From Thermoplasmatota archaeon (GTDB lineage: Archaea > Thermoplasmatota > JAKEGO01): a DNA stretch of 64,000 nucleotides. The notes beneath the pieces are model-generated. The model was not told the DNA's origin. It saw nothing but the letters and a program-made list of their open reading frames with translations, and ran no database searches. The stretch is from the NCBI GenBank assembly GCA_028279595.1, contig JANQNK010000006.1, positions 128,001 through 192,000 of the forward strand, given 5' to 3'. Both the position numbers and the translations under genes were made by a program. Shown piece after piece: positions 8,389 to 58,500 of this stretch. How positions within the stretch are numbered: position 1 is the stretch's first letter; every line of letters begins with the position of its first letter.

Positions 8389-11025
8389 TCACTTCATGCT
8401 CTCGAGCTCGTCGAGTATGGGCTGGATGTGATGGGTGTCGCCCCTCTCCTTGAAGATCTTCTTCGCCTTGTTGAAGAACGTCTTCGCCTGCTTGTCCTGC
8501 CCCATGTCCCTGTGGACGCGGCCTATGAGGAATAGCTTCTCGGCTATCCTTATCGGGGCGTTCCCCTTCTCCGCAAGCTCGAGGCTCTTGTTGAGGTACT
8601 CCAATGCATCCTCGTGATTCCCCTTGCTGGCATGGACGATCCCGTAGGCCATGTTGAGGTGTCCCATGAGAATGTGGTCCATGTCCGATCCGTGGATCCT
8701 CTCGGCCTCCTGGAGCCTCTCCAGGGCGTCGTCGTGCTTCTCCATCTCCGCAAGCGCCCTTACGGAGTTCATCAATGCGAACCCGAGGAGTTCGTGGGAA
8801 CCGCTCCTGCGTCCGGATTCGACGGCCATCTCCCAGTAGTGGTGGGCCTTCTCGATGTCCCCCTTGGAGAAATGGCACTCGCCCATGAGGTCGTAGACAC
8901 GACCGAGCTTGAAGACGTCCTTTCTCCCCTCGAAGAAGTCCAGGCTGACCTTCGCCAGTTCGAGGGCCTTGTCCATGTCGCCCATCGAGATGTAGATGGA
9001 CCCCATGTCGATCAGAAGGTCGTGATACTCGATGTCATGGGTCCCTTCCACGGCGTACTGGATCGCGAGTTCGAGGAGCTCCTTGGCCTTGCCGTGCTCC
9101 CCCTTGTGGATGAACAGCCTGGCAATTGCGCCGTTGACCATGGCCAACAGCCCCTTGTCCTTGGACTGGTTCGCCATGTCGAGAGCGATCTGAAGGTTGT
9201 TGTTGGCGTCGTCGACGTTCCCGAGGCTGAGTTCGAGCAACCCGAGCTGTCTGAATGCATGCGAGCGGGCCACGAAGTTCGTCGTGGATGACGAGTTCAG
9301 CGCCTTGTCGTAGTACTCCCTGGCGTTCTCGTGATCGGTCTCGAGGAAGTACATGTCCCCCTGGAGAATGTATATCTTGTAGAACTGGTCGGTCGGGATA
9401 TTGCCCTCGAGGTCCGTCAGTATGCTCTTGACCTCCGCGATGAGGCCGCGGTTCAGGGACTCGTTCCCGACCTTTCCGAGGATCTCGCTGGCGTCGTCGT
9501 AGTACTCGCCCTTGAGCAGATACCTTATCCCCTTCAGCGAGTCGAAGACCGTCTCCTTGCCGATGAAGTAGTCCGCTGCGTTCTTGCAGTGTTCCTTTAT
9601 CTCGGCCTCGGAGAGCCTAGAGTAGGTCACCTCGCGAAGGAGGTTCTGGAGATAGATCATGCCCGACGGCAGGTCCTGGATCAGGTGGAGGTCGATGAGG
9701 CGGTCGAGCGCCTCCATTGGTGGGTCGATGTAGAGCAGAGCGTCGATCTCGTTGGGATATGTGAGGACCGACGCGTAGTTGAGCAGTTTCCTCTCCTCCT
9801 CCTCGAGGCCGGAAAGCAGTTCGTCCTGGACGAACCGGTAAAGGTCGCTGGGCTTTTTCACGTCGTCGGGGTTCCTTATCAGTTCGAGGGACAGGGGATG
9901 CCCGCCCGTGATCTTGTAAAGGATATCGATGTTCGGTCCGGAGAACCCGCGCGAGCTGAGCATCTCCTCGGTGCCCTCGAAGCTCAGTCCCGACAGCTTC
10001 AGCTCCCCCACGTGGGAACGTATGTTGACGTCCCTCCTGTCGTAGAACTCGGGGGTTGTCCTGGATACGACGACCATCTTGAGGTCCTTGCCCGAAAGGG
10101 CCTCGAACATCTGTCCGAAGAAGCCGGCAAGCTCATCGTTCGCCTTCTCGTAGTTGTCGAAGACGAAGAGCGATGGCACGTCGCCGAGGTTCTCGCCGAT
10201 GAGTTCGATCGCCTCGTTGGTCTGGAACGATGACCTCGAGATCATCTTCTTGAGCTCCCTTGAAGCGTTTAGCGAGAAGAACTCGGCAAGCCTCGAAAGG
10301 ATGCTCCTGATGGTGTCCCATTCCGTGACGTTGCACCACAGTACGCTGTAGTCGCTGGTGAACTCGTCGATTACCTTGGCCAATAGAGTGGACTTCCCGA
10401 TCCCGGTTATCCCCGTGATGACGAGGACCTTCCTCTCGGATATGATCTTCCTCACGGACTCGAGTTCGCGGTCTCGTCCGATGAAGTTGCGTGGCTTTGG
10501 GGCATCGCTCAGCATGTGGACGCGCGTTGACATCTCCTTGTCCTCGGAGATGAACTTCTCGAGAGCCTCCATCTGAACGACATCCTTCCCGTCGTTCGCT
10601 ACCACAAGGACGGTCAATGGGGAGACACCGCCTCCCAGTCTCTCTACGAGGGTGAAAATGGGGACGTCCTCGACCTCGTCGCCGGTCCTTATCTTGATCT
10701 CCACGGCTTCGAGCTTCTCCTTGATGTCCTTCGCCTCGTCGATACCCTTCATGGTGAGGAAATAGATGTTGACCCGTCTCATGTGGCCTTCGACCATTCC
10801 CGTACGGACCTGAATGAGTTCGTCGTTGACGAGTCCCTTGAGCGAACGGGGGACGTGGTTCCAACGGATGCCCACGGCGTCCGCTATGCCCTTCTGGGAC
10901 AGGTCGTGGGGAAGAACTCCGAATATCTCGGTCTGCGACTCGTCTGAGACGTACCTTTCCGCAGGAAACTCGGAAAGATGGAGCAGTATCTTCTCCTTTA
11001 CCGTAAGCAAGCTCTTCTCCGTCAT
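8389..11025 (-). CDS. STAND-class NTPase: N-terminal winged HTH, NB-ARC-like domain and TPR repeats
   Basis: FIGRDREL, Walker A GITGIGKS, Walker B LFVFDNYE, GGHPL and ~8 TPR-like repeats. Confidence 0.9.
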   Translation of the reverse strand: MTEKSLLTVKEKILLHLSEFPAERYVSDESQTEIFGVLPHDLSQKGIADAVGIRWNHVPRSLKGLVNDELIQVRTGMVEGHMRRVNIYFLTMKGIDEAKDIKEKLEAVEIKIRTGDEVEDVPIFTLVERLGGGVSPLTVLVVANDGKDVVQMEALEKFISEDKEMSTRVHMLSDAPKPRNFIGRDRELESVRKIISERKVLVITGITGIGKSTLLAKVIDEFTSDYSVLWCNVTEWDTIRSILSRLAEFFSLNASRELKKMISRSSFQTNEAIELIGENLGDVPSLFVFDNYEKANDELAGFFGQMFEALSGKDLKMVVVSRTTPEFYDRRDVNIRSHVGELKLSGLSFEGTEEMLSSRGFSGPNIDILYKITGGHPLSLELIRNPDDVKKPSDLYRFVQDELLSGLEEEERKLLNYASVLTYPNEIDALLYIDPPMEALDRLIDLHLIQDLPSGMIYLQNLLREVTYSRLSEAEIKEHCKNAADYFIGKETVFDSLKGIRYLLKGEYYDDASEILGKVGNESLNRGLIAEVKSILTDLEGNIPTDQFYKIYILQGDMYFLETDHENAREYYDKALNSSSTTNFVARSHAFRQLGLLELSLGNVDDANNNLQIALDMANQSKDKGLLAMVNGAIARLFIHKGEHGKAKELLELAIQYAVEGTHDIEYHDLLIDMGSIYISMGDMDKALELAKVSLDFFEGRKDVFKLGRVYDLMGECHFSKGDIEKAHHYWEMAVESGRRSGSHELLGFALMNSVRALAEMEKHDDALERLQEAERIHGSDMDHILMGHLNMAYGIVHASKGNHEDALEYLNKSLELAEKGNAPIRIAEKLFLIGRVHRDMGQDKQAKTFFNKAKKIFKERGDTHHIQPILDELESMK

Positions 11026-11143: not shown

Positions 11144-11881
11144 TCAATCAAGGGGCCTGTACTTGACGGTCGGTGTACCGTCTGTCTTCTCATTGCCGTC
11201 GAGGGGAATGACCACGGCCTCCTGGGCCTGTTCCTCGAACGGGACCTGCTCTGCCTGTATGACGTTCTGGTCCGCTCCCGGGGGATGTACGACCGGGCCG
11301 CCGGCCTGATATTCTTCCGCCGGACGGTCCTCCCTCGGTGGTTCGTTGCCCGGTTGCGATTCCATGAATGTGGGGGAATGGCCTTGCTGCTGGGGCTGCG
11401 GGGAAACAACTGCCGGCTGCGGCTGCTGGACCGCCTGCTGGGGCGGTTGCGGTGCGACCTGCTGTTGTGGCGCCGGCGGTCGGGGCTGCTGGGTCGGTGC
11501 AGGCTGAACCGGCTGGGGTGGTTGTGGGGTCCCCCTCCTAAGTTCGAGCGCCTCCGCCTTCAATCCCTCGACCTGTATCTTCAATTCGTCGATGTTGTCG
11601 TGGAGATTGGCGATGATCTCGACGTCCCGGACGTGCCTGTCCTTGAGCCGGGCGATCTCCTCGTCACGCTCCCTGATCTGCTTGGTGATGACCTCCTGTT
11701 GGGCGCCCGCCTTGGCAGCATCGATCCCGCCTCCAGTCCTGAGCCTCTCTATCTCGGCCTCCTTGGCTGCCAGTATGTCCTTGAGCTTCGCCAGTTGAGA
11801 ATGGATATCAGGACGCTTCGGCGGTCCAGCGCTCTTCTCGGTGAGCGAGCGCATCTCCTCTTCTTCAACGATCCTGATCAT
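11144..11881 (-). CDS. Coiled-coil protein with a Pro/Gln-rich tail; last gene of the coiled-coil operon
   Basis: GGTGA SD; starts MIRIVEEEE; heptad-rich E/K/L segments followed by PQ low complexity. Confidence 0.8.
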   Translation of the reverse strand: MIRIVEEEEMRSLTEKSAGPPKRPDIHSQLAKLKDILAAKEAEIERLRTGGGIDAAKAGAQQEVITKQIRERDEEIARLKDRHVRDVEIIANLHDNIDELKIQVEGLKAEALELRRGTPQPPQPVQPAPTQQPRPPAPQQQVAPQPPQQAVQQPQPAVVSPQPQQQGHSPTFMESQPGNEPPREDRPAEEYQAGGPVVHPPGADQNVIQAEQVPFEEQAQEAVVIPLDGNEKTDGTPTVKYRPLD

Positions 11882-11894
11882 GTCCTGATCACCG

Positions 11895-12713
11895 TCAGAC
11901 CTTTCCGGCGCCCCTGCAGTTGGGACATACCTCTTGGACGATGCTTCCGTCCTTCTTCCTAACGCCGATGACACCCTCTCCTCCGCAGACGGGGCAGATG
12001 GCCTGTTCCCCGATGTCCTCGGGTATGGGTATCGTCTCGGGTACCTCGGCGACCTCCGCCGGGATCGGAGCCTCCTCCTGCGGTTCTGGGGCGGCTTCCG
12101 CGCCCTTTACCGTTTCCACCGTCTGGGCCTTCTCATCCTGTTGCTTGGCACCCAGGATAGATCCTGATCCTTCGGGCTTTCCACCGAGGAGTCTACCGCG
12201 CGACTCGGGTTGTGCCGGTGCAGCCTCCTCGACCGGAGCGAAGACCGGGGTCGGTCCCGCCTGGGGCTTCTTCATCGTGTCGCTCATCTGATGGAGCTCT
12301 CCGGTAAGATCGGATATCCGCTGTTCGAGCTCCTCCTTGTAAGCTGTGGTCTTGTCGAGGATCTCCTTGTCGAGCTCGATCTTCTTGTCCCTCTCCGTGA
12401 TCAGTGCTTTGAGGTCCTGTATCTCGCCCTTGAGCGTCTCCAGGATGCCAGGGTCGGTCTCTGCGGCCGGTGGGCCGTCCTTGGGAGCTGGAGCCTTGGC
12501 CTTCTCCTGCTCGAGCGCGGCCTTCGTCGCGTCGAGCTCCTCCTGGAGCTTGGTGTTCTCGTCCTTCATCGTCTTGAGCTCCTGGATCGCCTTGTTGAGC
12601 TTCTCCTTGAGGTTCTCTACGATGTCGGTGATCTGCTTCTTGAGCTTGAGTTGCTCAGACGTCTTCTCCTGCTTCGACCGCTCCATCTCGTCCTCGGTGA
12701 TCATCCTGACCAT
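11895..12713 (-). CDS. Coiled-coil protein with a C-terminal DnaJ-type zinc finger
   Basis: Starts MVRMITEDE after a GGAGGG SD; ends CPVCGGEG...CPNCRGAGKV. Confidence 0.85.
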   Translation of the reverse strand: MVRMITEDEMERSKQEKTSEQLKLKKQITDIVENLKEKLNKAIQELKTMKDENTKLQEELDATKAALEQEKAKAPAPKDGPPAAETDPGILETLKGEIQDLKALITERDKKIELDKEILDKTTAYKEELEQRISDLTGELHQMSDTMKKPQAGPTPVFAPVEEAAPAQPESRGRLLGGKPEGSGSILGAKQQDEKAQTVETVKGAEAAPEPQEEAPIPAEVAEVPETIPIPEDIGEQAICPVCGGEGVIGVRKKDGSIVQEVCPNCRGAGKV

Positions 12714-12726
12714 TCCGACCCTCCAT

Positions 12727-13521
12727 TCATGTTCTCCCAGTTCCACCGCACCGCGGACATGAGACCTCCTTCTCGGCGTCCCCGTCCTGCACGATCACCT
12801 TCTTTCTCCCCTTGCAGAGGTCGCAGCGTTTCGACCTTCCAGCCAGGGGAGGCGCTAGGTTCAGCACTATTGTGTCGTTAGTGCCACTTTCCTTATTTAA
12901 ACTTTCCAACTGCTGCTTGGCCTTCCTGAGCTCTGCTACGATAGCGCTGGACTTCGTCTTGAGCTCATCGTATCTCGCAGTGTGCTTCTGACCATCCTTC
13001 CTGAGCTTCTCGTTCTCGACAGTCAGGTGCTTGATCCTCTCGATCGCAGCGGGGTCGGGCCCCGATTGGGTTGCCGTCGATGGCGACGCCCTCAACGACT
13101 CGACCTCCGCGAGCAGGTCCCGTCTGATCTGCTCGTACTGGGACTTGATGCCCTCGAACGAACGTATCTGCTGGTCCCTGTCGGTTATCATACGCTTGAG
13201 GATGTCGATCTCCTTCTCTTTCTCGGCGACGCTCTTCGTGATCGCCTGTATCCTCTTCTGCATCTCCCCTACCTTCTGCCTGAAGGATTCGGGTATCTCG
13301 CTCTGCGCCTTGGCCTGACGGATCCTCGTGACCGCCCATTTGAGCTCGTTCTGAAGCGTCTCCTTGGCCGCCGCGCTCTCCTCGAGGTCGGTCCTGAGCG
13401 AATTGATCTGATTGGTCAATGTATCGATGGTCCGAAGATGGATCTCCTCCTCCGCCTTGCCCTTGGCAATGAGCTGCTTGAGACTCTCGACCTGGGCTTT
13501 AAGCGGATCGGACCCTGTCAA
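12727..13521 (-). CDS. Coiled-coil protein with a C-terminal DnaJ-type zinc finger; TTG start
   Basis: TTGA overlap with the upstream stop; ends CDLCKGRK...CPRCGGTGRT. Confidence 0.83.
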   Translation of the reverse strand: MTGSDPLKAQVESLKQLIAKGKAEEEIHLRTIDTLTNQINSLRTDLEESAAAKETLQNELKWAVTRIRQAKAQSEIPESFRQKVGEMQKRIQAITKSVAEKEKEIDILKRMITDRDQQIRSFEGIKSQYEQIRRDLLAEVESLRASPSTATQSGPDPAAIERIKHLTVENEKLRKDGQKHTARYDELKTKSSAIVAELRKAKQQLESLNKESGTNDTIVLNLAPPLAGRSKRCDLCKGRKKVIVQDGDAEKEVSCPRCGGTGRT

Positions 13522-14975
13522 ACTATACCAGCTCCGTCACACCTAGGACACGTCTCCTCCCTGACGTGGCCGTGCCTGTCCTTGACCCCGACCTTCCCGA
13601 GGCCACCGCATACCGGACAGACCTTGCCCAATGTGTCGCTCACCGGCACCTCGGCCGGCGGAGGGGGCGGTGCGGCCGCCTTGGCCGGAGGTGCCGCCTG
13701 TGCCTCTGCCGGCGCTGCGGGAGGCGGTGGTGCCGCGGCCTTGGTCTCCAGCCTCTCGTTGAGCCTCTGTACGGCGGTCTCGAGGGCAGTGTTCCTTCCG
13801 TTAGCCTCGTCGAGCTCCTTCCTGGTCTTCTCGAGCTCGGCGTTGAGTCCGTCCCTCTCGGCCATGATCATCTTGACGTCGCCGCTCTCCGCGGCGATCT
13901 TCGCGTTCTCTGCCTCCAGGTCCGCGATCCTCTTGTTGAGGCCCTCCCGTTCGGTCTTCCAGGAGGCTTCCTTCTCGGTGAGGGTAGCCTTGACGGCCTC
14001 CATCTGCTCCGACTCTCCGGCCTTGTCGCCCTGGAGCTTGACGTATTCCTGCTTGACGGCCGCGATGGTGTCCTTGACCTCCGTGAGGTCCTTCTTCAGC
14101 TTGGCGTTCTCCTCCTTGAGCTTGACGACCTCAGCGGAACCGGCCTTCTCGAGTTCAGCGATCCTCATGTCCCGCATCTGCACCTCCTTGTTGAGGCGCT
14201 CGATCTCGCGGGTAAGGCCCTGTACCTTGTCCGTGGAACCCGAGCTCTGCTTGACGATCTTGGCGTTCTCGGCCGTGAGCCTCTCGACCTCCCGGGTCAG
14301 GGCGTCCGCCTTCTCCTTGACTGCGGCCGAATCCTTCTGGACCTTCTCGTTCTCGGCGGCGGATATCTCCGCGGCCTCCTTCATGGATGCCAGCGAGGCC
14401 TCGGCGGTCTCGATCCTCTTCGTGAGCTCCGCCCTCTCCTTCTCGACGACCCCGATCGCGGTCTTCATCTCCTCGATCTCGTCGTTCTTCGTCCTCAGGG
14501 AGGTCGTGACCTTCTCCAGCCTCTCCTTGTCAGCGGTCCTGTCCTTGTCGGCCTTCTCGAGGGCCTTCCTGGCGGCCTCGAGACCGGCCAGCGCCTTCTT
14601 CGCTTCCTCGAGCTCGGCAGCTGCCTTTCCTGCCTTCTCGAGGTCCTTCTGGAGCTGATCGTTGGTGGCCTTGAGCCCCTTCAGGGTCTCCTTGGCCGCA
14701 CCGACCGTCTTCTTCATCTCCTCCCTCTCCTTGTCGAGGGAGTCCACCTGTTTCGTAAGGTCTGCGATCCGCTTCTCGGAGGCTGCGGTATCCTTCTTGG
14801 CCGCATCGGCGTCGGCGGTCATCTGTTCCACGACCACTTTTAGGCGCGATATCTCACGCGCCCTTTCCTCGATCTTCCTCTCTGATTCGGATATCCTCTC
14901 CTTCAGTTGGAGGTTCTCAGACTTCTTCTCCTCGTCGAAAAGGTCCTTCTCGTCCTCGGATATCACCTTGATCAT
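13518..14975 (-). CDS. Long coiled-coil protein (~400 aa helical) with a Pro/Ala linker and a C-terminal DnaJ-type zinc finger
   Basis: Starts MIKVISEDE (ATGA overlap); no NTPase motifs; ends CPVCGGLG...CPRCDGAGIV. Confidence 0.87.
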   Translation of the reverse strand: MIKVISEDEKDLFDEEKKSENLQLKERISESERKIEERAREISRLKVVVEQMTADADAAKKDTAASEKRIADLTKQVDSLDKEREEMKKTVGAAKETLKGLKATNDQLQKDLEKAGKAAAELEEAKKALAGLEAARKALEKADKDRTADKERLEKVTTSLRTKNDEIEEMKTAIGVVEKERAELTKRIETAEASLASMKEAAEISAAENEKVQKDSAAVKEKADALTREVERLTAENAKIVKQSSGSTDKVQGLTREIERLNKEVQMRDMRIAELEKAGSAEVVKLKEENAKLKKDLTEVKDTIAAVKQEYVKLQGDKAGESEQMEAVKATLTEKEASWKTEREGLNKRIADLEAENAKIAAESGDVKMIMAERDGLNAELEKTRKELDEANGRNTALETAVQRLNERLETKAAAPPPPAAPAEAQAAPPAKAAAPPPPPAEVPVSDTLGKVCPVCGGLGKVGVKDRHGHVREETCPRCDGAGIV

Positions 14976-16123
14976 ATCTTACCCGCTCCTTTGCATCTCG
15001 GACACATCTGTTCGTTCAGTTTTCCGCGTTTGCCCCTCACCATCACGCGTCCCTTGCCCGAGCAAACCGGACAATCCTTCTTCCCCTTCTTCGAGCGCTT
15101 TCCACCCTTCTTCTTGACGGGCTTCCTGGGGGAACTATCCACCTTTGGAGGTCCCGGAGGTTGTACGTCGGGTTCCTCGGGCTCTTCTTCCTCGGCACCC
15201 TCGAGTATCCCCTTGACGTTGACCTCGTTGTGACACCATGGACAGATGGCCTTTTGAACCTTCCTGTCCACGATGAACGTACCGTGGCAGTAGGGGCACT
15301 CCACCTCGGTATCGCTCCTCGTCCTGCGTTCTGGATTGAGAGTGAACTCCACGGTCCTGGACGCATACGGCGGTATGTTCACATACGCCTCCGACGGCAC
15401 CGGAATGAACCCTTCCGGGGAGAATGGTTCTATGTGCAACGTCTCGAGGGACCGTTCCGACTCGTTCCTTATCTTGATCCGATAGACCAGGCCCTCACCC
15501 TTCTCGGTCAGGACCGTCGATATCGAGGCGTCCCTGCCCGGGACGAACTCCTCGGCGGTGTACGCATCGGTGTTCATCGGATTGAGCTCGAATATCCTCG
15601 CCTCTTCGCCGAAGGGCTTGAGGCTGATGACCTCGCTCTGCGGGGTCGGGACGAATATCGAGTTGGATGTGTCCGGAATGATGTTGATCCGGTTCAGGGG
15701 CTGCCCGAGGTTGTTTCGAACGAGGACCTTGTAGAGGATCCTGTTCTCGACCCGGGCGAAGACCGTCTTGATAGTGAGCTCGCGTCCGGGCTTCGGCTTG
15801 ACCATGGTCGCTGCCACGGCGCGTTCCGCCAGGGAGATGCACTCCTCGAACTGGTTCTCCTTGAGGGCGCGCTTGGCCTTCGTCAACAGGTCCTTCGCGC
15901 TGTTGACATCGATGCGTGCGTCCTGTGCCTTCAGGATCGAGCGTTCGGCGAATTCGACGGCACCCTTGGCGCTGTGCGCCATGCTCAGCTGTTCACGGAC
16001 CATGTTCTCGGCCTTCTCGGAGAGTCCCCGTGCCCTTTTCGGCTTTTCCTGGTCAAGGGCCAGTCTCGCCTTAGCGAGGACCTCCTCAGCCTCCGAGGTG
16101 TCGATATCGATCCTTTCGTCCAT
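14972..16123 (-). CDS. Multidomain protein: helical N-terminus, two tandem beta-sandwich repeats, zinc ribbon, basic linker and DnaJ-type zinc finger
   Basis: Internal repeat PGR...Y[KR]..[VI]RN.....L....I.P...F.P.P...F.LNP (x2); CPYC..CPWC; ends CPVCSGKG...CPRCKGAGKI. Confidence 0.85.
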   Translation of the reverse strand: MDERIDIDTSEAEEVLAKARLALDQEKPKRARGLSEKAENMVREQLSMAHSAKGAVEFAERSILKAQDARIDVNSAKDLLTKAKRALKENQFEECISLAERAVAATMVKPKPGRELTIKTVFARVENRILYKVLVRNNLGQPLNRINIIPDTSNSIFVPTPQSEVISLKPFGEEARIFELNPMNTDAYTAEEFVPGRDASISTVLTEKGEGLVYRIKIRNESERSLETLHIEPFSPEGFIPVPSEAYVNIPPYASRTVEFTLNPERRTRSDTEVECPYCHGTFIVDRKVQKAICPWCHNEVNVKGILEGAEEEEPEEPDVQPPGPPKVDSSPRKPVKKKGGKRSKKGKKDCPVCSGKGRVMVRGKRGKLNEQMCPRCKGAGKI

Positions 16124-16124
16124 G

Positions 16125-19100
16125 TTACTCCTCCCCCTCTTTTACCGATTCTATGAACGCCTTGGCATGCATGTAGGCGCCCTTTGCCGTCTCCAGCATG
16201 GAGACGATGATGTATACGGCTATAAGACCGAGTATGAGTGCGATGAGCGGATAGATGAAGGTCGGGAACGGCAGCAGGTCAGGAGTGAGGAAAAGGCCTT
16301 CGAGCATGGTGCCGATCGATCTCCCCGAGGATAGGCTCAGGAAGAATATGCCGAACATCAGGCCGCATATGGCGAGCGTGCTGATGTATGACTTCGTTCT
16401 GATCCCGGTGATGATGGTGTAGAGCGGGACTATCATCACGAGCATTATGTACGCGAGCGGAAGGGCAGCCGCGTCGATCGCCGCGCTCTCGACCGGCAGG
16501 AGGACGAACAAGGAGATCGCCGTCGTCACGACCAGACCCTTGATGAGGTGCTCGTTCCGCCGCTGTTTGAGGCTCACGCGCTTCGCGTTCGCCCTTAGCA
16601 TCGCGAAACCACCGAGAAGTATGATCGGCAGTGCGATGAGGACGATCGGGTTGGGGCGTTTGCTGACCTTTATCTCCGTAGAAACGACGTTGTTCCTCCG
16701 CCGTCCCGGGTCACTCCCCTCATAGCCTTCGCTGGCCGCCTTGATCGTCAACGTGTGTCGCTCCGAACGGTTGAACCAGTCGAGCTCCGGGATCTCGATC
16801 TCGATTGCGAGGGTCCTCTCCCCCTCCATGGGAAGGTCGATCTGGACCTCGTGGATGAGGTCTCCGTCCCAGTAGACCTCGATCGGCAGGTTCGAGAGGG
16901 TGTCGATGACCGGGTCCCCCGTCTCCCTGCCGGTGGACCTAACGGTGAACGTTACGGTGAGCTCGTCCCCCTCCTGTGCGATGTCATCGATGTCCACGTC
17001 CGAGATGGATATGTCTGGCGAGAGCGTGATTATCAGGAAGTTGAGCTCCTCGGGCGTCGGCAGTGCGTCGACCCAGACGTTCACGGTGAAGTCGAGTTCG
17101 GAGAAATGGGGTATCGAGGGTGCGGAATGTATCGTCGCATAGATGATCCGGTCCTGACCGGGAGCCAGCAGGAAACTGGAGTTGTCGAGCTCGATCTCCC
17201 AACCGGAATAGAAGGTCGTGGAGTTGAGCGTGAACGTCCGCTGTACGGGGAACTCGTTCCTGATGAGGATGCCGTAGTCGATCTCGGAATCCGGGAATAT
17301 GTAGACGAACGGAGGTCCGTAGGGCATGACGAACGAGGTCTCGACCTCGATGCGTACGTCGTCGTATCCCGGACCCTCGACCACCGAACCGGACACGTCT
17401 ACGTAGTTGATCGGGTCGTTGAGGGAGTTGGACGGCGGCCTGATCGTAACGTAGACCGTAGTGCTCTCGTCGAAATCGAGGGTGACCGATGGTCTGTCGA
17501 GCCACACGGTCCAATCGCCGGTCTGAGAGACGTCGAGTGTGACGTTCTCTCGGCCGTTGCCGGTGTTTATTACGTAGACAGGGACGATCAGAGGTTCGTT
17601 GGGTATTACCTTCCACACGTCGCTCCCGCCCCAGATGTCCAGGTCCCGTGTCTGGAGGTCGACACCCGTGACGAGGTCGACGATGACCTTCCCCCATTCG
17701 GAGTCGGACACCTTGCTGTCGTGCTTCGATGTGAGGTTCAGGATGATGGTATCGCTGCTGTCCGCGATGAGTCCGTACGGGATGTACACCCTGATCTGGA
17801 GTATTCGGGTCTCTCCGGGATCGACGAGGTCCAGGGCCTCGGGATTGATCATGTCGGTCTCCCAATCTGAGGTCGACACGATGTCCTCGTTGTAATTGTC
17901 TATCCCGTTCCCAGTATTGTTGAATGTGAAGTTGAGGACAGTCTCCCCTCCAGGGGGCCCCCTCGCCGTCATCACAGGGCGTATCTCGACCCCTCCGACC
18001 TGGGTCAGCGATATCGTGCATGTGGAAAAGTCGCTCTTGGTCGGGTCCGCAGTGGAGTTGACCTCGACGACGATGATGTAGACCTCGTCCTCGAGCGCGT
18101 CCTCCGGTATCTGTACCCTCAGGGTGATCGTCGTTGTCAGACCTGCTAGCACCGAACCGGTGATATCCCCCGGTAACAGGGAGATCGAAAGGCTCTGATT
18201 GTTCACTGTCCTCAGGCCGAAGGAGTCCTCGCCATTGCCCGTGTTGGTCACGATGAGCTCCATATCGACAGTGTCGCCCGGTTCCGCGGTGGTAGCGTTC
18301 TCCTCGGGTTCGATGGTAACGGAATAGCCCTGAAGGACGTTTATGTACGAGAAGGCGCTATCGCTCGTGGTCCCATCACCACAGGTGGCGGTGAGGACAA
18401 GGGTCTCGTTCGTTCCGACGGGAGTTCCTGGATTGATGGTGACGTTCACGATGATATCCACATTCTCGTCGTATTCGAGGTTCACCAGCGGCTGTGAATC
18501 GACGACGAAGGTCAGATTGGTCGATCCGTCGATCGAGAACGAGTCCATGTCGTTCCCCTGGTTGCGGATGTTGAACGTGAACTGGACAGCTTCCATCGGT
18601 TCCCCGGACTGGATAACTGGATCGATCGCGGTGACCTCGACACCGTAGACCTGGGGGATCATCGCCACGAGGTCGACCACCCGGTACTTCGAGCTGTCGG
18701 CGTCGGACTCGGCCCGGACAGTGATGTGGGCCCGCCTGTTGTCCGGCCTGTCCCTCGATTCCATCGTAATCGTTATTATCTCAGATTCGCCATTATCAAG
18801 TGTAATGCCGTCCGGAGGTGCTCCATTCTCAACATTTACCAGCCAGTTTGGGGGCGCTGTTGAGTTGGTAATGTAGAACGTGTCAGTACTCTCGTAGTTC
18901 GCCACGTTGGTCACGTTGACGAGGAATACCGCGGTCTCTCCTATCCCGATCTCGACGGGAGATTCGCTGATGAGCCTGATGTCGACGTCATTGGATTCGG
19001 AGACGTCGATGGAGGCCTGGGATGACGCGTCGACGTAGATGTCATAGTCGGATGTCACCTGGATACGCAGCGTTGCGGTGGTGTCGGCGGCTATGACGTT

Positions 19101-19736
19101 GTTCCACTCGGATCGCGGCACGATGACGTCCACGCTGACGGAGATGGAGTCACCCATGTCGAGGTCCTCTATCTTGTCGTCGAACGTGACGTTCCAGACC
19201 CTGTACTGGGTGTCGATGCAAAGGGCCTCGACTGTGAAGTTGTCCATGGCATTCCCGGTGTTCCACACGGTGAAGTTGATGGTGATGGTCTCGCCGGGAT
19301 CGCCGAAGAACGTGCCTGGAGTGTTGATAGCTACTCCGGCCACGGGAAAGACCCTGGTCGTGGCCTGGGCCGTGTCGGTGGCGCTCGACGCCTGGGATAT
19401 AGCCTGGAGGGTGACGTAGTCGACGGTGTTGGCCTGTGTCCCTGCCGGGATGGAGACGATGACCTCGATATCTTCCTCGATCTGGCCGGATGATAGTGTG
19501 ATGTTCGATGGCTGGACCACAGTCCAACCCCGGGAGGAGTTCGCCACGAGATCGTAGGAATCGGTTTGGCTACCAGTGTTCTCCACATCGAAGTGATGGG
19601 TGATGTTCGCGCCTGGAAATCCCCATCCGCCACCTCCATCCGGTCCCCGTACATCGACGTCGTACTGCGCCGCCCCGGGACCGCAGAGGAACAGTGCGAA
19701 GAAAACGACGCACAAGAACAACCAATGCAGCCTCAT
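16125..19736 (-). CDS. Cell-surface protein, 1203 aa: signal peptide, ~8 Ig-like (NEW3/COG1470-type) repeats, CARDB-like domain and ~5 C-terminal TM helices
   Basis: Repeated N[TQ]GN..D.[FY] motifs, many N-x-S/T sequons and a hydrophobic C-terminal bundle; its stop is 1 nt from the next start. Confidence 0.85.
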
Positions 19737-49914: not shown

Positions 49915-52422
49915 ATGAAGACCCTCGTATTGATGATCGCGGTACTAGCCACCATTTTCGTGATCGGAAGCGTTGCTGCGCAAACCGTGGAGAACGACGA
50001 TACGACCCCAATTCGGTTGTACTTCCACTCCGACGGCAGTGATACGCAGTACAACATGAGCTCGATGGGCCCAGGGAGCGGAGATGGAACCCAGATCCAG
50101 GCCGATGACGTACGTGACTATGTGCTCAATCAGACACTCAAGTTCGATCTATTCGTCATAGGGGACGATCTCGGCGGCGGTCAGAAGGGATTCAAGGTCA
50201 ACCTCGAGGTGGATTGCGATTCCACTCTGGGTGGCGACACCGAGGCACAGTTGCAGATAGTCAACGAATCCGATGACTCCATCGTCGCCGAGAGCGCATG
50301 GCTCAGTTCACAGACGAACTGGTCCGTACCGTTCGTCGATGGGGGTATCGATAACTACACGTTCGTGATGGATTCACAGATCATCGTTCGGATAAAGGTC
50401 CGCACTGACGACGCCATAGCCGGATGGGCGAACATCGATACCATCGGTGACTACTACCTTCAGGTCATTTGCTCACCGATAGAACTCAGGATGAGCGCTG
50501 AACTCTACGATTACAGCTCCCACAAGTGGTGGCTCAGCCCGCCGGAGATGGAAGAGGTATCGGAGGAGGAGGACGAGTTCCAGCCGAACATTCCCTCGAA
50601 CCTGAGGTTCATGAACGTCACCGGAGAGGTCCGGAGCGCTTTCGGCTCGTACGATGTAAGGCACGTCACCCTTTCGCTCTTCGAGGGCAACGGCGAGGGT
50701 ACCGAGATCGTCATGGATGAACTGACCGTTCATGAGAACGAGTATCAGGGCAGCGACATCTACAAGTTCTACCACATCTGGTGGTGGAACATCAAGGACA
50801 TCGTCGCGACGGACACCGCGAACAATGCCGACGATTATCGTTGGTACCCGACCTACACGAACCCTGACGGGATCGAGTTCAGGTCCATCTACGGGAGCGC
50901 TACCTTCGACATGCTGGAGTATGCTGTTTTCATGGAGTTCCAGGACGGGAACCAGACCACCTATACCACCGGTGAGCTCGGAAACGAGACGAGCGTCCAT
51001 TTCACCGTCCATAACACCGGAATGTCCAACGAGCAGATCGACCTAGAGGCGAACTCGATCAAGGACTGGAACATCACGCTCGACAAGACGACATTCAGCC
51101 TCTCCGAGGGAGGATCAACCGAGGTGACCGCAACCATAGAGATACCCGGAGATGCCTCGGTCCACGATACGGACACAGCCCAGGTGGAGGCGACCATCGA
51201 CGAAAACCTCGCGTTCAGAGAGACGGTCAACATAGAGATCGAGGCCACCGGGAGCATCAAGTTCGAGTTCATCAACACCGGGAACCTCTCCGAGACGGTC
51301 GGCCCGGGTGAGACGGCCACATACGGATTCAGAGTGACCAACGAGGGGTCCGAGCCGGAGTCCTTCGACCTGAGGAACGACGCTCTCGACAGCGGATGGA
51401 CGATCACGTACGATCCGTCGAGCTCCAAGGACGAGCTGGACGACGGATCCTCCTGGGAGGTCGATGTCAAGATAAAGGCACCGAGCCAGGTGACCGCCTC
51501 GACTGTCCTGGTCGAGGAGATCAACATCTACGCATGGCCCGAGGGACGGAGCGACCTCGAACAGAGACTACTTACAACCACTACCCTGCAGGATTACGAC
51601 ATCATACAGGACATCACTCCCGAGACGGGTATCTCAGAGGTCGAGGAGACCGACCCCGATTTCGAGTATAGTCAGGTCACCTTCGATATCGAGGCCTACA
51701 ACGGCGAGGTCGAGACGGTCGAGGCATCCTTCGAGATCGATTACGATGCCAGCAACATCGACGGATCGGAATGGCTTATCATCGAACCGGACGACGCCGA
51801 TATCGAGGCCGACGAGACCGAGATCTTCACCTACTTGTTCACACCGATGAAGGACATCGAACCGGGATCCTACCACGTCGAGTTCATAGTGCTCTTCGAC
51901 GACGACGGAAAGAGCGAGAGCGGCGACCTCTTCATCGAGGTCGAGGAGTACATCGAGATCGCCGCCGTCACCGTCAGCGAGGACAGTGTCAAGGTCGATG
52001 CGGAGGACAGGGTCACATTCCAGTTCGATCTCGTCAACAACGGGAACGCAGACGATGTGTTCGAGGTCAGAATATCCGGTGTAGACAGCGAATGGGACGT
52101 ATGGATCGACGGGGTCAGCTCGGCGACGAACACGAAGGACATCGATCTTGACCAGGGCGACGAGAAGACCGTCACCATCGAGTTCGTGTCTCCCGAACAG
52201 GCCGAGGGTGAGACCTTCGACATAACGGTCACCGTACAGTCGGAGAACGACCCATCATACGAGGAGTCGCTATCCTTCACGATCAAGGTGGAGGAGAAGT
52301 CCGACGATCCGACAGGCCCTGAGATACTCGAGCGTATGTTACCGTTGATAGCTCTGGTGTTCGTGCTCATCATAATCTTCGCTATGTTCAAGAGGAAGTC
52401 CCGGAAGATGGAAAATCAGTGA
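49915..52422 (+). CDS. Acidic surface glycoprotein with NEW3/COG1470-like Ig repeats and a C-terminal TM anchor
   Basis: Signal peptide, repeated N[TEN]G....[FI] modules, TM followed by KRKSRK. Confidence 0.8.
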   Translation: MKTLVLMIAVLATIFVIGSVAAQTVENDDTTPIRLYFHSDGSDTQYNMSSMGPGSGDGTQIQADDVRDYVLNQTLKFDLFVIGDDLGGGQKGFKVNLEVDCDSTLGGDTEAQLQIVNESDDSIVAESAWLSSQTNWSVPFVDGGIDNYTFVMDSQIIVRIKVRTDDAIAGWANIDTIGDYYLQVICSPIELRMSAELYDYSSHKWWLSPPEMEEVSEEEDEFQPNIPSNLRFMNVTGEVRSAFGSYDVRHVTLSLFEGNGEGTEIVMDELTVHENEYQGSDIYKFYHIWWWNIKDIVATDTANNADDYRWYPTYTNPDGIEFRSIYGSATFDMLEYAVFMEFQDGNQTTYTTGELGNETSVHFTVHNTGMSNEQIDLEANSIKDWNITLDKTTFSLSEGGSTEVTATIEIPGDASVHDTDTAQVEATIDENLAFRETVNIEIEATGSIKFEFINTGNLSETVGPGETATYGFRVTNEGSEPESFDLRNDALDSGWTITYDPSSSKDELDDGSSWEVDVKIKAPSQVTASTVLVEEINIYAWPEGRSDLEQRLLTTTTLQDYDIIQDITPETGISEVEETDPDFEYSQVTFDIEAYNGEVETVEASFEIDYDASNIDGSEWLIIEPDDADIEADETEIFTYLFTPMKDIEPGSYHVEFIVLFDDDGKSESGDLFIEVEEYIEIAAVTVSEDSVKVDAEDRVTFQFDLVNNGNADDVFEVRISGVDSEWDVWIDGVSSATNTKDIDLDQGDEKTVTIEFVSPEQAEGETFDITVTVQSENDPSYEESLSFTIKVEEKSDDPTGPEILERMLPLIALVFVLIIIFAMFKRKSRKMENQ

Positions 52423-52540: not shown

Positions 52541-55500
52541 TCACTCTATCGTGAACTCGTCCTCGCAACTCGGACACTTGATGTCCACCGGTCTCTCCTT
52601 CGGAATTATCAGGTTGTGTCCGCACGTCGGGCATGGAGCCACCATGATCTTCCCTATGTCCATGACCTCGGTCTCGATGGCCTTCGGTGCCTCAGGCTCG
52701 GGCTTCTTGATCGGGGCCATACCTGGAACCGTGGGTAGTTCAAGGCGTGGCGGCGGTGTGGCTGGCACCTCGGGAAACGCTTCGACCGGCGCTGCGGCCT
52801 CGGCCGGAGCTGCTTCGGCAGGTGCTGCTGCTACCGCGACTGCGGGTGGTTCCTCACCCTCTGAGAAGGCTGGTGGTCCCTCGAACTCGACCACGGCCTC
52901 GTAGACCTCCGCCTCGATGACGTCTACAGGTGCTGTCGGGGAGATCTCCTTCGCCATCTCCTCGGCCCTCTTCTTCTTCCTCTGTCTGGACATGCCAAGG
53001 AGAAGGACGACCACCACGACGGCGATCACAATTCCGGCGACGATCATGATCGGGAACTCCGATTCATCGTCGCCCTCTTCGACGTAGATCGTCGTTTCCA
53101 CGGAACTGATCTCCTCGAAGGTGTTCCCGTAAGCCTTCACCACGATATCGTGCTCTCCCTTAGGGAGCTTCGTCCTGACATAGAAGGTCATGCCGTCGAT
53201 TGACGTCCCGTTCTGCCAGGACATCTCGTATCGCGTTTCGTCCACGAAGAGGTAGACCTCCGTTGGGAAGACGTTGGGCAACTCGTAGGTGAATATAACG
53301 GTAAAGGTGATCGTGTCGTCCTCGGTCGGGAAGTCGGGACTGTAGGTGAGCGAGCTGAGCTCGGGTGGCTCGGATATCGGTATGAAGACGCCGAAAGTCG
53401 ACAGGTCCTCGAGGTCCGCTGTAATCGTACGGTCCTCGGTGTCCGTCTCGGTGTCGTCTATCGGCATCCACGCGGCGCCCACGAGGTGATAGATCTTCGC
53501 ATCCTCGATGCCGTTGGTGTCATCGAGAGATGATGGATAGGTTATCTCCATCCTTACGTCACGATACTCGCCCGCTCCGTACGGGACTACCTCCACGTAT
53601 GCGTCGAGCGAGATCACTCCTGTCGGGATGTCGTCATCGTAGAAGCCGTCGCCTCCGAGTATGATCCTGTTTCCGACCCACGTGAGCTTGATACTGAATC
53701 CTCCCGATATCGAGAATTCGTTCGTCCTCTCCAAGAGGGTGGGTGTACCGGACATGGTCACGATGGGCCCGAGGTTCCCCTCGTCGTCGATAGCCCTCAC
53801 CGCAAAGAAGTATGTTCCGTTGTCGGGGAGGACGACATGTATCCATTCGTTCTCTCCGGGCTCCTTCGGGACAAGGTCGTTCGTCACGTTGGTGGCGATG
53901 TCCCAGCGTCCCTCGCTCGTGATGTCCTCGTTGTCGTAGCGAATCAGATATGCGGTAGCGCGTCCCTCGTCACCGTCGTCTCCCGGGGCGGTCCACGTGA
54001 GGTTCAGGGTGTCTCCGAAACCAACGTCCTCCGCGAGTGGACTGCCGATGCCGTCGGGTTCGATGACGTCGCCGATGGTGATCGGTCCGTCGCTGTATAT
54101 GAAGACCTCGTTCTCGACGTCCTTCAGCTTGAACATGATGTAGTAGGACCCCTTGTCGACGCCGTCGGTGTCCCACTTGAACTCCGTCCTCGATTCCGTG
54201 AGAGCGGTCTCGGTGATCTCCTCGAACCCGCCGTTCGACCTTTCATCGTCCGTATCGTAGAATATGCGGACCTCGACCTCGTCACCGTCCTCGTCTGACA
54301 CGTTGAAGTAGATCGTGAACTCGTCGCCCGGGTCGATCATGTCGTCGACGCCGTCGGGCTGGTCGATCTCGACGGTCGGGGGAACGTTCGGGGATCCCTC
54401 GCGGATCGGAAGGACGTACTCGGCATAGACCTTCGTCGGGTCCTCGTTCACACCATCCTCGATGGTCGCATACAACCAGTAATCGCCTTCCGGTATGTCG
54501 GTGACGTCCCATTGATAGTCGTCCTTAGGCTGTCCGTTGTCATCCAGGGTGTCCTCGTAGAACACGCCGTCGTGGAGCTTGGTACCGTCGAAGTCCTCGT
54601 CGTCATCGTCGTAGTATATCCTGATCGTGGCATTGTTGTCGGGATCGTCATCCTCCCACTGGATGAAGAACCACGACTGCTCCCCCTTCCAGACGGTATC
54701 GTCCACACCATCAGGGTTCGTGAAGCTGATGAGCGGTGGAACGTTCTTCCACACCGTGACGTTGACGAGGTATTCGGGAGATACTCCGTCGCGCCTGTCG
54801 GTCGAGTTCGCCTGGAGCGTGTAGTTGCCCGGCTCCTCGTCCCGCGTGTCCCACGAAACGGTCCAGTTCCATCTGTTCCACGCGACCTTCTGCACCGGAA
54901 CGAACAGAGTGTGCTGGTTCTGGACCTCGCCGTCCTCGATCCAGAACACGGTCAGGTCCACGGAGTCCAGCTCGTCGTCCGGGTCTATCGTGTAACCGGT
55001 CACGTCGACCTCACCGCTGAGGCGATCGGATTCCTCGGGGAAGGTGATGAACGTCCGCGGTAGCGTATTGACGTTGTCGATCGATACGTTCCGACTGAGG
55101 ACCTCCGAGATGTTCCCTCCGTCGTACGACATCGCATGTATGGTGTAGTTGCCGTCCTCGATCTCCGTCGTGTCCCATTCGAACTCCCAGAACCAGTATG
55201 GGTCCTTCGATCCGGATGTATCCTCGGCGTCCTGCCAGTCGCTTCCCTCGGGCTCCACTCCCCGTTCGGTGATCGCAACGTAGACGTCCGTCACGTTCCC
55301 GTCGTGGTCGGGATCCCTCGCAGTGCCGTTGATGGTTATGATGCCGACGAGCTCGTCGTCCTTCTTCGGCTCCTTTATCGAAACAGTGGGGTCATCGGGA
55401 TTGTCAAGTGATACGTTGATGGTGACCGCCCTCGTCAGGTTCTCTCCGTCCCGAGCACGGGCATAGATATCGTAGACGCCATCATCGGTCCTGTTCGGTG

Positions 55501-58500
55501 ACATCGTGTCCCACTCGTACTCCCACGAGAACCATGAGCCGTTCCCCGATGTATCGTCCGCCTGGACCCAGTCGTTGAGGGAAGGCGACACGCCCTCGGG
55601 CATTATCGCGACCTCGACCTCGTCCATGTCGCCCTCTGGATCGTCGGCGCGGCCTTCGATCATGACAGTACCGTTCACATAGACATCATTCTCTGGCGCA
55701 GTGATGGTACAGTTCGGAGCCTGGTTGTCGACCAGTTCCACCGTTATCGTGAACACCTCGGAATACTCGAAGTTGTTGTCCTCCGAACGAACGTGGATAT
55801 CGTGATCGCCTGGACTGTACAATGAGGTGTCCCAGTCGTAGGTCCAGTCCATCGTACCCTGACAGGATTGCCATGACGACTCACTGTCGAACCTTATCTC
55901 GACGAGGATCACCTCGCCGTCGTTGTCGGTCGCGTTCCCAAGGATGACGTAGCTAGATGAACGGGAGATGCTTGCCCCGTCCTCGGGATCGAAGATCTGT
56001 ACCCACGGTTTCTCGTTGGCCGGTTCGACCTCGTCGAACCACTCGGTGTGGCTGGTCGTCATATCGACGTCGCGCTGTTCGGACCATTGGGGTGTCTGGA
56101 CATCGACCGTTGTGGTGTTCTGGGCAATCCCCAATTCACCATGGATCCTATCTGTCACTATGATCCAACGTACGTAACCATCTGAATTGGTTGCAGGATC
56201 GGTCCCACCATATCCGTTCGAAGCGTAGATGACATCGTCATTGTCCTTGACCTGGACATCGGCGCCTTCGAGGTCCTGGCCGTTCGTGTCGTTCACGTGG
56301 ATGAGCAAGTAGTTCATCACGACCCATTGCCCATCCTCGACAGAGATCCCGCCAGAATAAGAGACGTTCAGTGTGGTTACGTTCGAATTGTCAACTTCGG
56401 TAGCTTGCTGAGATGAGATGGTCGAATTCTCGAGATAGACGTCAGTATCGTTATGGAGTATCAGTGCATATCGTGTATCGTCGATGGTGGATCGGACCAT
56501 GCGGGTGTTATCTGTTTCGTATATGGTCATGCCATATACAGTGTCGATCAACTCAACATTCGTGAGGTTTAACGAGGTCGAATTCTGAGAGTAAACTCCG
56601 ATCCTGTTCCTTGAGAGGTCCCCTCTTATCGAGACCTCGTCACAATAGACGGCCAGGATACCCTGTTGGTTGTTATGGACCACAACATCGACCATCGCAC
56701 TGGAATTGACGATCCCGATGTAACCGTAAGTTCCATTGATGTAGGTCATATCAGGTTGAGAGACGAGATATATCATCTCATGACCATCGACCGAATTACT
56801 TGTGTCGATGTCATGGAGATAATGAACCAGGCTCGTCCCCTCGACACCAAAGTTGTAACTATCTCCCTCAAGGCTCACGTTCCTCATGATGATCGATGTA
56901 CTTTCGTTTAGCTTGATTCCTAAATATATGGAAATTACTTCGATGGATTCAAGGACCATATTTGATGAATTAACACAGTTGACTCCCAACGTATCACTCT
57001 TGATGTTGGAAGAAGTTATGTTGACGAAAGACGAATCGATAGATTCTATCCCGAACCTTGGCTGGTCGATATATATCTGTTCGAGATGGATCATTTCAGA
57101 TCTCTCGATAACCACACCGTTCTCGGAGGTCGAAATGTTACATGACAACATAGATATGTTCAAGGAATTGAAGATGTACAATCCATCGTCGTCTCCTGAA
57201 AGATCACATTGAGAGATCGTTACGTTCCCACAATCGTCAAGATAGATCCCAGTATCTACAGAATCGAAGGTATTGTTGAATATTACTATTTCGTCAACGT
57301 TATAGTAGCCAAGACCTTCATCATTGATATTGGTGAGTGATAGATCCATTGCTGTGATATTCCGTCCTTCAACGACCTGAATACCTGTGTCGCCCCTTTC
57401 GAATTCTGTACCTTGGATCAATACGTTCTCGCTATTGTTGATCATAATTCCATCATCGAGCGCCCAGAGTATGCTATTGCGAATCGTAAGATTATCCGAA
57501 TCGACAGCATGGATCCCTGTTCCAGTGTTGAAATTGTTAGTGATATTGACCGATTCGATGGTTACATTGTGGGATGAAATCGTTAATAGTACGATATCGT
57601 CAGAAGAAGAAATTTCTGAAGTGGATCCGTTTCCGAGAAGAGTGACCTCGAGGGTGATGTTCAGTACCTCACGATAGAGGCCATCCCAGATCCGAATCAC
57701 ATTTCCAATTGTTGCGTTATCCAGGCCCTTCTGGATCGTATCGAAGGGATGCACACGGGAACCATCCATATCTGGATCCCCCGCATTGTCGTCGTCCACG
57801 TACAATATTCCCTCCTCAGACATGTTTACTACAAGCTCTTCGACATGCGACCATGACATGTTGATCGTCAGGTTCGCCTCGGTCCCCTCGGCCATCGCAT
57901 ATGCTTTCGTCTCGTTCTCGATAGCAGTGCTCGAACCGTCGTAGATCCGATCAGTCACAAGGACCCAGTCGATGTAACCGTTCTTCGCGGTCTTCGGATC
58001 GGTGCCGTTGTAGCCTGCGGAAGCATAGACCGACTCATCATTGTCGGTGATGTTGACGTCGGCGTTATTCCATGGCTCGTTGTACTGGTTGATGACGCGG
58101 ATCTGGAGGTAGTTCTTAACTGTCAGGGTCGATGAGATATCGACTGAGACACTGGAGAAGTCCGAATTGATTGTGGTCGCGGATCCCGTGGTAGCGACCG
58201 TAATGTCCGAAGATGTCGAACTAGAGATCGTCGTGTTCCCAATCCTACCCCCTATGGTCGAGTCGACGATTATACCACGATTCGAATCCGATATCGAACA
58301 GTTCTCTACCAGGAAGTTGTCAGAGAGAAGACTGAATGCCATCCCGTCGTTCGAAGATTCCGTCACATTGGTCGACAGGACCTGGACGAGGGATGACTGA
58401 GACGAGAAGATACCAAAGGTGCTGTTGATGATCATACAACCTGATACGACGGTCTGGTCGCTATCAGATATCTCGATGCCATCATCACCGTGATCCTCGA

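Follow-up and report, generated by a model that had tools for sequence, protein, structure and literature searches.

A conserved six-gene operon of Thermoplasmatota that may encode a membrane-tethered scaffold of coiled-coil rods with class-specific end modules

In the genome of an uncultured Thermoplasmatota archaeon, three clustered genes open with much the same nine residues and four end in much the same zinc finger, which raises the question of what these two end modules are for. The genes lie in a 64,000-nucleotide (nt) stretch of contig JANQNK010000006.1 (assembly GCA_028279595.1), hereafter the window, whose positions 11144-16123 make up the downstream two-thirds of a minus-strand operon. 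The operon has six genes, here g1 to g6, with a seventh, g7, behind them (Table 1). Here, we will refer to the nine N-terminal residues as the head, to the C-terminal zinc hairpin as the finger, and to the genome containing the window as G000. A preliminary description of this DNA had proposed that the head of one product docks on the finger of a neighbor.

We consider it an even call that the operon builds a membrane-tethered cytoplasmic scaffold whose rods are joined through these two class-specific end modules. The adaptor g2 would hold the cytoplasmic tail of the membrane protein g1, the heads and fingers would serve as connectors binding the rods g3 to g6 to each other and to g2, and the dimensions of the scaffold would depend on the rod lengths. 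What can be read directly is the modules, their conservation and exclusivity, the architecture of rods and linkers, and the ancestry of g1 and g2; from these, we infer that the products form one complex with the end modules as its connectors. From g2 to g6, the modules follow each other as finger; head and finger; finger; head and finger; head.

Table 1. Genes of the operon, the gene behind it, and the two end modules (window positions; aa, amino acids; AF2, AlphaFold2; TPR, tetratricopeptide repeat).
Feature	Positions	Strand	Description	Basis
g1	16125..19736	(-)	1203-aa surface protein	Pfam, hydropathy scan, homology to first gene of relatives' archaellum operons
g2	14972..16123	(-)	383-aa cytoplasmic adaptor, finger, no head	AF2, Foldseek, homologues
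g3	13518..14975	(-)	485-aa coiled-coil protein, head, Pro/Ala linker, finger	
g4	12727..13521	(-)	264-aa coiled-coil protein, TTG start, finger, no head	
g5	11895..12713	(-)	272 aa, head, two long helices, 87-aa disordered linker, finger	AF2, orthologues
g6	11144..11881	(-)	245 aa, head, short coiled coil, Pro/Gln-rich region, no finger	
g7	8389..11025	(-)	878-aa STAND-type NTPase with TPR repeats	Pfam
g3 head	14949-14975	(-)	MIKVISEDE	
g5 head	12687-12713	(-)	MVRMITEDE	
g6 head	11855-11881	(-)	MIRIVEEEE	
g2 finger	14975-15073	(-)		
g3 finger	13521-13619	(-)		
g4 finger	12730-12825	(-)	variant CDLCKGRK...	
g5 finger	11898-11996	(-)		

The three heads that the preliminary description placed at 14975, 12713, and 11881 on the minus strand are indeed present and far exceed chance. 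They follow the pattern M-[IV]-[KR]-[VIM]-[IV]-x-acidic3, and each of the three starts is preceded by a Shine-Dalgarno-like site or by an ATGA/TTGA overlap with the upstream gene. A looser expression (M[IVL][KR][IVLM][IVL]x[EDA][ED][ED]), run on all six frames of the 2.29-Mb genome, matched three times, at the starts of g3, g5, and g6; from residue frequencies, we estimate that <0.01 such N-termini would be expected by chance per genome. Paralogue BLAST found the first ~50-90 residues of g3 and g5 to be similar (E down to 4e-7), and g6 shares with both only the nine-residue head, with no significant wider homology.

Could the head have no function in the protein at all, being just a leftover of duplication or a feature that acts on the RNA or at translation initiation? 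Such an origin would suit g3 and g5, which are clear paralogues, and AAGGTGAT within the g3 head resembles a Shine-Dalgarno sequence. However, the codons under the head differ synonymously among orthologues (ATCAAGGTGATA / ATCAAGGTTATA / ATCAAAGTCATA), which argues for selection on the peptide rather than on an RNA element, and these synonymous changes also destroy the Shine-Dalgarno-like string; the RNA-level explanation was rejected on this variation. The head is moreover kept across ~35%-identical orthologues, in a g6 that lacks detectable wider homology, and on proteins that have otherwise diverged to ~20% identity. An origin of this kind is largely refuted, and we regard it as very improbable.

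Each of g2 to g5 ends in a single C-terminal finger of the form CxxCxGxG..CxxCxGxG, in which two knuckles flank a beta hairpin of 14-15 residues. A C-terminal CxxCxGx[GK]-hairpin-CxxCxGxG expression retrieved only these four proteins from the genome, the two further matches elsewhere lying inside longer open frames. Among the paralogues, significant BLAST similarity is confined to the finger (E ~1e-9) and to the N-terminal part of g3 and g5. The four cysteines (C18, C21, C41, C44) are invariant across 8 fingers, and the hairpins are orthologue specific, with KVGV[KR]D..G.[VI][RK]EE in g3 and [VK][IV]GVRK.DGS in g5. The preliminary description had called the fingers basic, in keeping with a charge complementarity to acidic heads, but only the g2 finger of G000 is clearly so (+7); the others are at about +1, and in a relative, G002, the g3 finger reaches -1 and the g5 finger -3.

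Among solved structures, a profile of the 8 fingers best matched the cysteine-rich domain of Escherichia coli DnaJ (1EXK, residues 27-61, E 2e-7), a segment that we take to be zinc centre II. When some 400 other genomes of the phylum were sampled, the finger profile scored above 50 bits only in G000, G001, and G002, and the head profile aligned to coiled-coil columns only, never to positions 1-10; against the PDB, the head profile returned coiled-coil noise only. On these profile searches, the head and the finger are found only in this Thermoplasmatota class, which in GTDB consists of only three species (genomes).

DnaJ-type fingers of other kinds were also seen. In an unrelated context, G002 encodes a further protein, of 91 aa, that combines one DnaJ-type finger with an additional Cys cluster (G002:C121:3806-3934, L085), and small stand-alone single-finger proteins of 66-74 aa occur elsewhere (P0012, P0018).

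Relatives of the operon are very few. A search of 5.8 billion proteins returned 4-6 clusters per gene, and an exhaustive profile search of 1.84 billion representatives retrieved only two full-length relatives of g5, of which one is the protein of the window itself; its remaining matches were a single g3 fragment, small single-finger proteins of unrelated kinds, and noise from coiled coils or low complexity. Metagenome scans with the g5 and g3 profiles, which may omit records near the window's genome, gave no confirmed locus; JGI contigs with the operon do exist.

In the relatives that were found, the pattern persists. G002, of the same order and another family (~35% identity), has g1 to g6 in the same gene order with fingers on g2 to g5; its heads read MIKVISAED in g3, MIKVISEDD in g5, and MIKIIDDDD in g6, and its g4 has none. 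A JGI contig (L027) carries g2 to g7 with a truncated upstream gene at the position of g1. An ENA contig (L064) carries a g4 finger, a 40%-identical g5 with head and finger, and a g6 with the head MIRIVDEDE. A 32%-identical g6 retains MIRIVDEEE, and a 44%-identical g4 has no head and retains its finger. By sequence comparison, module pattern and gene order are conserved in every relative found.

The preliminary description fared well on these points. It had given g2 a finger and no head and g6 a head and no finger, both of which the sequences bear out, and it had flagged g4 as lacking the head, an exception that turns out to be conserved itself. It had also asked for conservation of the peptide in orthologues, and the head is kept in every one found. 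Finally, it had asked for conserved termini on coiled coils of varying length. This holds as well: between G000 and G002, g3 measures 485 vs 681 aa and g5 272 vs 418 aa, with 21-22 of 31 finger positions identical, heads that are fully conservative, and ~20% identity in the remainder.

Further evidence on the role of the finger comes from the ancestry of g1 and g2. Many other families of Thermoplasmatota have full-length homologues of g2. Searches matched g2 itself to relatives at E 1e-16 to 1e-111 and its profile at E down to 1e-138, and g1 matches the g1 of a relative's locus, L015, at E 1e-17. We examined the 25 loci outside the class that are full length and have at least 1 kb of downstream DNA. 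In all but one of them (24/25; L087, L089-L094, L097-L110, L112-L114), an archaellin gene with a class-III signal peptide lies 13-543 nt downstream of g2 on the same strand, and none of these 25 g2 homologues ends in a finger. Those loci that were fully read run from g1-like and g2-like genes through ArlB and an ArlC/D/E fusion to ArlF/G-, ArlH-, ArlI-, and ArlJ-like genes, these last labels resting on position, size, and likeness.

In G000 and G002, no archaellin directly follows g2, and finger-bearing coiled-coil genes stand there instead. The archaellum operon of G000 lies on another contig (C4:137000-142100, L025), with ArlB, an ArlC/D/E fusion, ArlG/F-like genes, ArlH, and ArlI, and has a divergently oriented gene in place of an upstream g1 and g2. 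No homology to Arl proteins was detectable in g3 to g6. Comparison of these loci indicates that g1 and g2 are an ancestral archaellum-operon pair that, in this class, became detached; g2 then gained the finger, and four coiled-coil genes replaced the arl genes. The finger is thus the only thing added to g2 when its new partners appeared, which is the strongest argument for the finger as a coupling device. Together with the confinement of both modules to this class and operon, the gain of the g2 finger where head-bearing genes appear points to the modules as connectors.

The pair itself could represent an accessory or anchor of the archaellum, so far undescribed, in archaea that lack an S-layer, and, given the descent of g1 and g2, a role of the operon at the cell pole or near the motor is conceivable. 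How the ArlF/G stator is anchored in the S-layer-less Thermoplasmatales has been stated to be an open question (PMC12448462). Our literature searches found no description of the module or of the g1/g2-archaellin linkage.

The membrane end of the proposed scaffold is g1, which has a signal peptide, ~1000 aa of Ig-like repeats (Pfam families Ig_VWA7, FixG_C, and CARDB) with 21 N-x-S/T sequons, ~5 transmembrane helices, and a 26-aa cytoplasmic amphipathic tail (16128-16205). In every g1 homologue that was read, the last transmembrane helix is followed by a C-terminal amphipathic helix of ~25 residues, encoded directly before the start of g2.

We modeled g2 with AlphaFold2 (9-sequence alignment, mean predicted local distance difference test score [pLDDT] 77.7). 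The model starts with a four-helix domain (residues 10-104), which is followed by two Ig-like beta sandwiches (116-182, 199-264) and by a zinc ribbon (271-302; window 15218-15313). A basic, disordered linker (309-347) then leads to a well-formed hairpin at 359-373. The N-terminal helical domain (15810-16123) is the obvious candidate partner of the g1 tail. Foldseek returned only generic tandem Ig-like folds for g2, such as PapD-like chaperones, ASH/SPD-2, and transglutaminase barrels. The helical domain (profile positions ~3-100) also occurs, sometimes repeated, inside many open frames of 600-3200 aa across the phylum (for example, G016:C3, G005:C3, G088:C25, and G035:C157).

Another explanation does without a scaffold and has heads and fingers serve outside partners. 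The fingers would be holdases or client binders, for instance in the biogenesis of g1 or of archaellum parts, and the heads, on our proposal, would attach either to the TPR array of g7 or, by strand complementation, to the g2 Ig-like domains. Both homologues of the finger, DnaJ zinc centre II and Anti-TRAP, are protein binders. PapD-like and ASH/MSP folds, which the g2 sandwiches resemble, can bind extended peptides, and the TPR-bearing g7 is conserved downstream. Yet the Pfam matches include no other chaperone part and no J-domain family within an E-value limit of 0.1 (for g3, among the best 25 of its 32 matches); a chaperone would not readily account for four different long rods; and the g2 Ig-like domains are older than the heads and are widespread without them. 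We think this explanation quite improbable.

Returning to the scaffold, how might its rods be joined? The g5 model (6-sequence alignment, mean pLDDT 67.9) shows both modules on one protein. The head begins as a six-residue non-helical hydrophobic stub of the M-I-K-V-I-S type (residues 1-6 are coil by DSSP) and then becomes the acidic start of a helix; helices span residues 7-73 and 88-148 with pLDDT mostly >90. The 87-residue linker at 151-237 is disordered (pLDDT <50), and the hairpin lies at 249-262 (pLDDT ~59).

Along the lines of the preliminary description, a head could pair, as one more beta strand, with the zinc hairpin on a different subunit, in a linear chain that starts with g2, ends with g6, and is roughly colinear with the genes. 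Strand pairing of this type is presumably also found in the ClpX zinc-binding domain complex. A single heterotypic module pair would then recruit all five proteins; the finger is the one class-specific addition to g2, and the head is the one module that g6 shares. In the AlphaFold2 models, head residues 1-6 are not helical and the edges of the hairpin are free, and each finger is carried on a long flexible linker of a kind suited to finding a partner. There is precedent in the short C-terminal motif of an adaptor that docks on the ClpX zinc-binding domain (PMC7226468).

Several results run against such a chain. Acid/base complementarity is absent outside the g2 finger of G000. The g3 and g5 heads of G002 are almost identical though their upstream fingers differ, leaving specificity unclear and undercutting the idea of a code. 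Of the initiator-linker-terminator chain in the preliminary description, the conserved, connector-like ends stand; four fingers face only three heads, however, and the g5 monomer holds both modules without pairing them, which is a weak test. The end of g6 had also been taken for a Cys-less remnant of a finger, a view that found no support: it gave no significant BLAST alignment to any finger and is not conserved in G002. Its C-terminal VVIPL...KYRPLD (11147-11215) is kept in all four orthologues found (54-100% identical, one 32%) and is absent from G002 g6. On balance, we hold the head-to-hairpin chain to be unlikely as drawn.

The mismatch in number might be eased by g4. Headless itself, it carries a strand-like TIVLNLAPP (12847-12873) ~10 residues before its own finger, whose first knuckle in the G000 lineage is the conserved variant CDLCxGRK. 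IVLNLAPP is invariant in all G000-lineage g4 relatives, down to 44% identity, and G002 has KVVLKFDPP there. This segment could be a cis-bound or substitute docking peptide. A full heterotypic code that includes it, with the five proteins hung from g1 in an ordered chain of defined length, strikes us as clearly unlikely.

The same data are fitted equally well by homotypic hubs. Here, the fingers of g2 to g5 would cluster, or share one site on g2, g1, or the membrane, and the heads of g3, g5, and g6 would bundle, producing a two-node network rather than a chain; the head, we propose, would set the register of parallel coiled coils or trigger their formation. All five proteins would again be incorporated. 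The heads of g3 and g5 run on without a break into the homologous coiled coil noted above, as expected of a shared oligomerization start, the near-identical heads of G002 g3 and g5 suit co-bundling, and the linkers before the g2 finger are basic. On the other hand, the paralogue-specific conservation of the hairpins suggests distinct partners, and g6 shares only the nine-residue stub and not the coiled-coil start. We also know of no single DnaJ-type finger that self-associates on its own, which we count against hubs. We judge this arrangement improbable.

Whichever way the rods might be joined, a number of observations weigh against the scaffold as a whole. The g5 monomer model, from a shallow alignment and a single chain, has neither head-finger contact nor strand pairing. 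The Foldseek template-modeling scores of g2 are low and its fold generically Ig-like, and DnaJ-type fingers elsewhere act in chaperoning, which makes a client-binding role possible. The comparative evidence comes from a handful of related, non-independent metagenome contigs, and the co-distribution of head and finger is partly trivial, both being on the same proteins. Finally, a run search listed no RNA sequencing run as containing the stretch.

In the operon, the start of g2 lies 1 nt past the g1 stop, g3 overlaps g2 through ATGA and g4 overlaps g3 through TTGA, and g5 and g6 each follow a 13-nt gap with Shine-Dalgarno-like sites; these overlaps and gaps suggest that the genes are co-translated. 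A TATA-like box lies ~50 nt upstream of g1.

Located 118 nt downstream of g6 with its own TATA-like box, g7 is a STAND NTPase with a TPR array, combining a P-loop STAND module (AAA_22, 32 bits, cut-off 27; NB-ARC, 26.3 bits, cut-off 23.5) with the repeats (TPR_12, 107 bits; TPR_MalT, 66 bits). In our own reading, its N-terminal region is helix-turn-helix-like; g7 as a whole is regulator-like. It follows g6 in L027 as well, and in L028, the same position holds a 769-aa gene cut by the contig end.

The surroundings are ordinary chromosome, with genes for PolB, pyruvate kinase, a Toprim-domain (primase-like) protein, and a PurL-like AIR-synthase-family protein. The closest protein-atlas clusters are from Thermoplasmatota, and the sole DNA sequencing run listed with the stretch is a coral metagenome, which may be the source of the DNA. 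Elsewhere in the window, an 835-aa protein (49915-52422, plus strand) has the Ig-like domain set of g1. It adjoins a 3296-aa beta-helix/NosD/Big_7 protein (52541-62431, minus strand) in a low-GC stretch, with a GC content of 0.40-0.49 at 56-62 kb vs ~0.58 elsewhere.

What would such an operon mean? Little is known of cytoplasmic scaffolds in archaea that, like Thermoplasmatota, have neither a cell wall nor an S-layer. The locus shows that an archaellum-operon pair can be redeployed with dedicated coiled-coil rods and that an isolated DnaJ-type zinc hairpin can come to serve structural proteins as their terminal module. If the connectors are specific, a short peptide and a 33-residue zinc hairpin would make a compact encoded assembly system, of interest to archaeal cell biology and protein engineering alike; a docking code, if true, would imply a new kind of cytoskeletal ruler or cortical scaffold in archaea, with the DnaJ zinc module put to a use not seen before. 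If the modules are not connectors, what is left is a clean orphan module that lends itself to testing, from a lineage with little sampling.

Known systems resemble this one in parts. Like zinc centre II of DnaJ/Hsp40 (1EXK), the finger consists of two CxxCxGxG knuckles around a beta hairpin. Unlike DnaJ, g2 to g5 have two of the four repeats and one zinc centre, lack the C-terminal substrate domains, and carry the finger at the extreme C terminus, in coiled-coil proteins; the Pfam model DnaJ_CXXCXGXG (PF00684) scored 23.4, 17.8, 17.6, and 20.9 bits, all below its 32.7-bit cut-off. Anti-TRAP (2BX9, 3LCZ), the second-best solved match, likewise uses a single DnaJ-like zinc domain for protein recognition. 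The match is weak (E 8e-4 to 0.1), however, its hairpin is shorter, it has no coiled-coil rod, and its partner is TRAP; the Pfam model Anti-TRAP (PF15777) reached 15.1 bits vs a 32-bit cut-off.

For the rods, the nearest parallels are tropomyosin, intermediate filaments, and crescentin, which polymerize through short conserved termini and in which rod length sets spacing. Their ends meet in helical overlaps rather than through a zinc hairpin, whereas here five different subunits form a fixed set, and the Pfam scores (Filament, PF00038, 17.7-22.7 bits vs 40; Rod_CreS, PF19220, 17.3 vs 100) reflect generic coiled-coil likeness. For the docking, the SspB and RssB adaptors of ClpX dock by means of a short motif at their C terminus, and the site that receives it is a small zinc domain of the C4 type (PMC7226468). 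That zinc fold is unrelated and its peptide C-terminal, with no homology to the head or finger. The precedents for each part of the mechanism, namely, the ClpX zinc-binding domain, Anti-TRAP, and the head-to-tail assembly of rods, are no more than analogies.

The archaellum accessories ArlCDE/ArlX and the euryarchaeal polar cap are related through genomic context, g1 and g2 homologues lying directly upstream of arlB and the arlCDE fusion elsewhere, and membrane-associated scaffolds of cytoplasmic coiled coils are a recurrent feature of archaellum and polar-cap systems (PMC12448462). The G000 archaellum operon, in contrast, is on another contig without g1 and g2, and g3 to g6 have no Arl homology. 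As a kind, then, a coiled-coil scaffold with terminal connectors is known; what appears to be new is the isolated DnaJ centre II hairpin paired with a nine-residue head, in a fixed set of five proteins that descends in part from an archaellum-operon pair.

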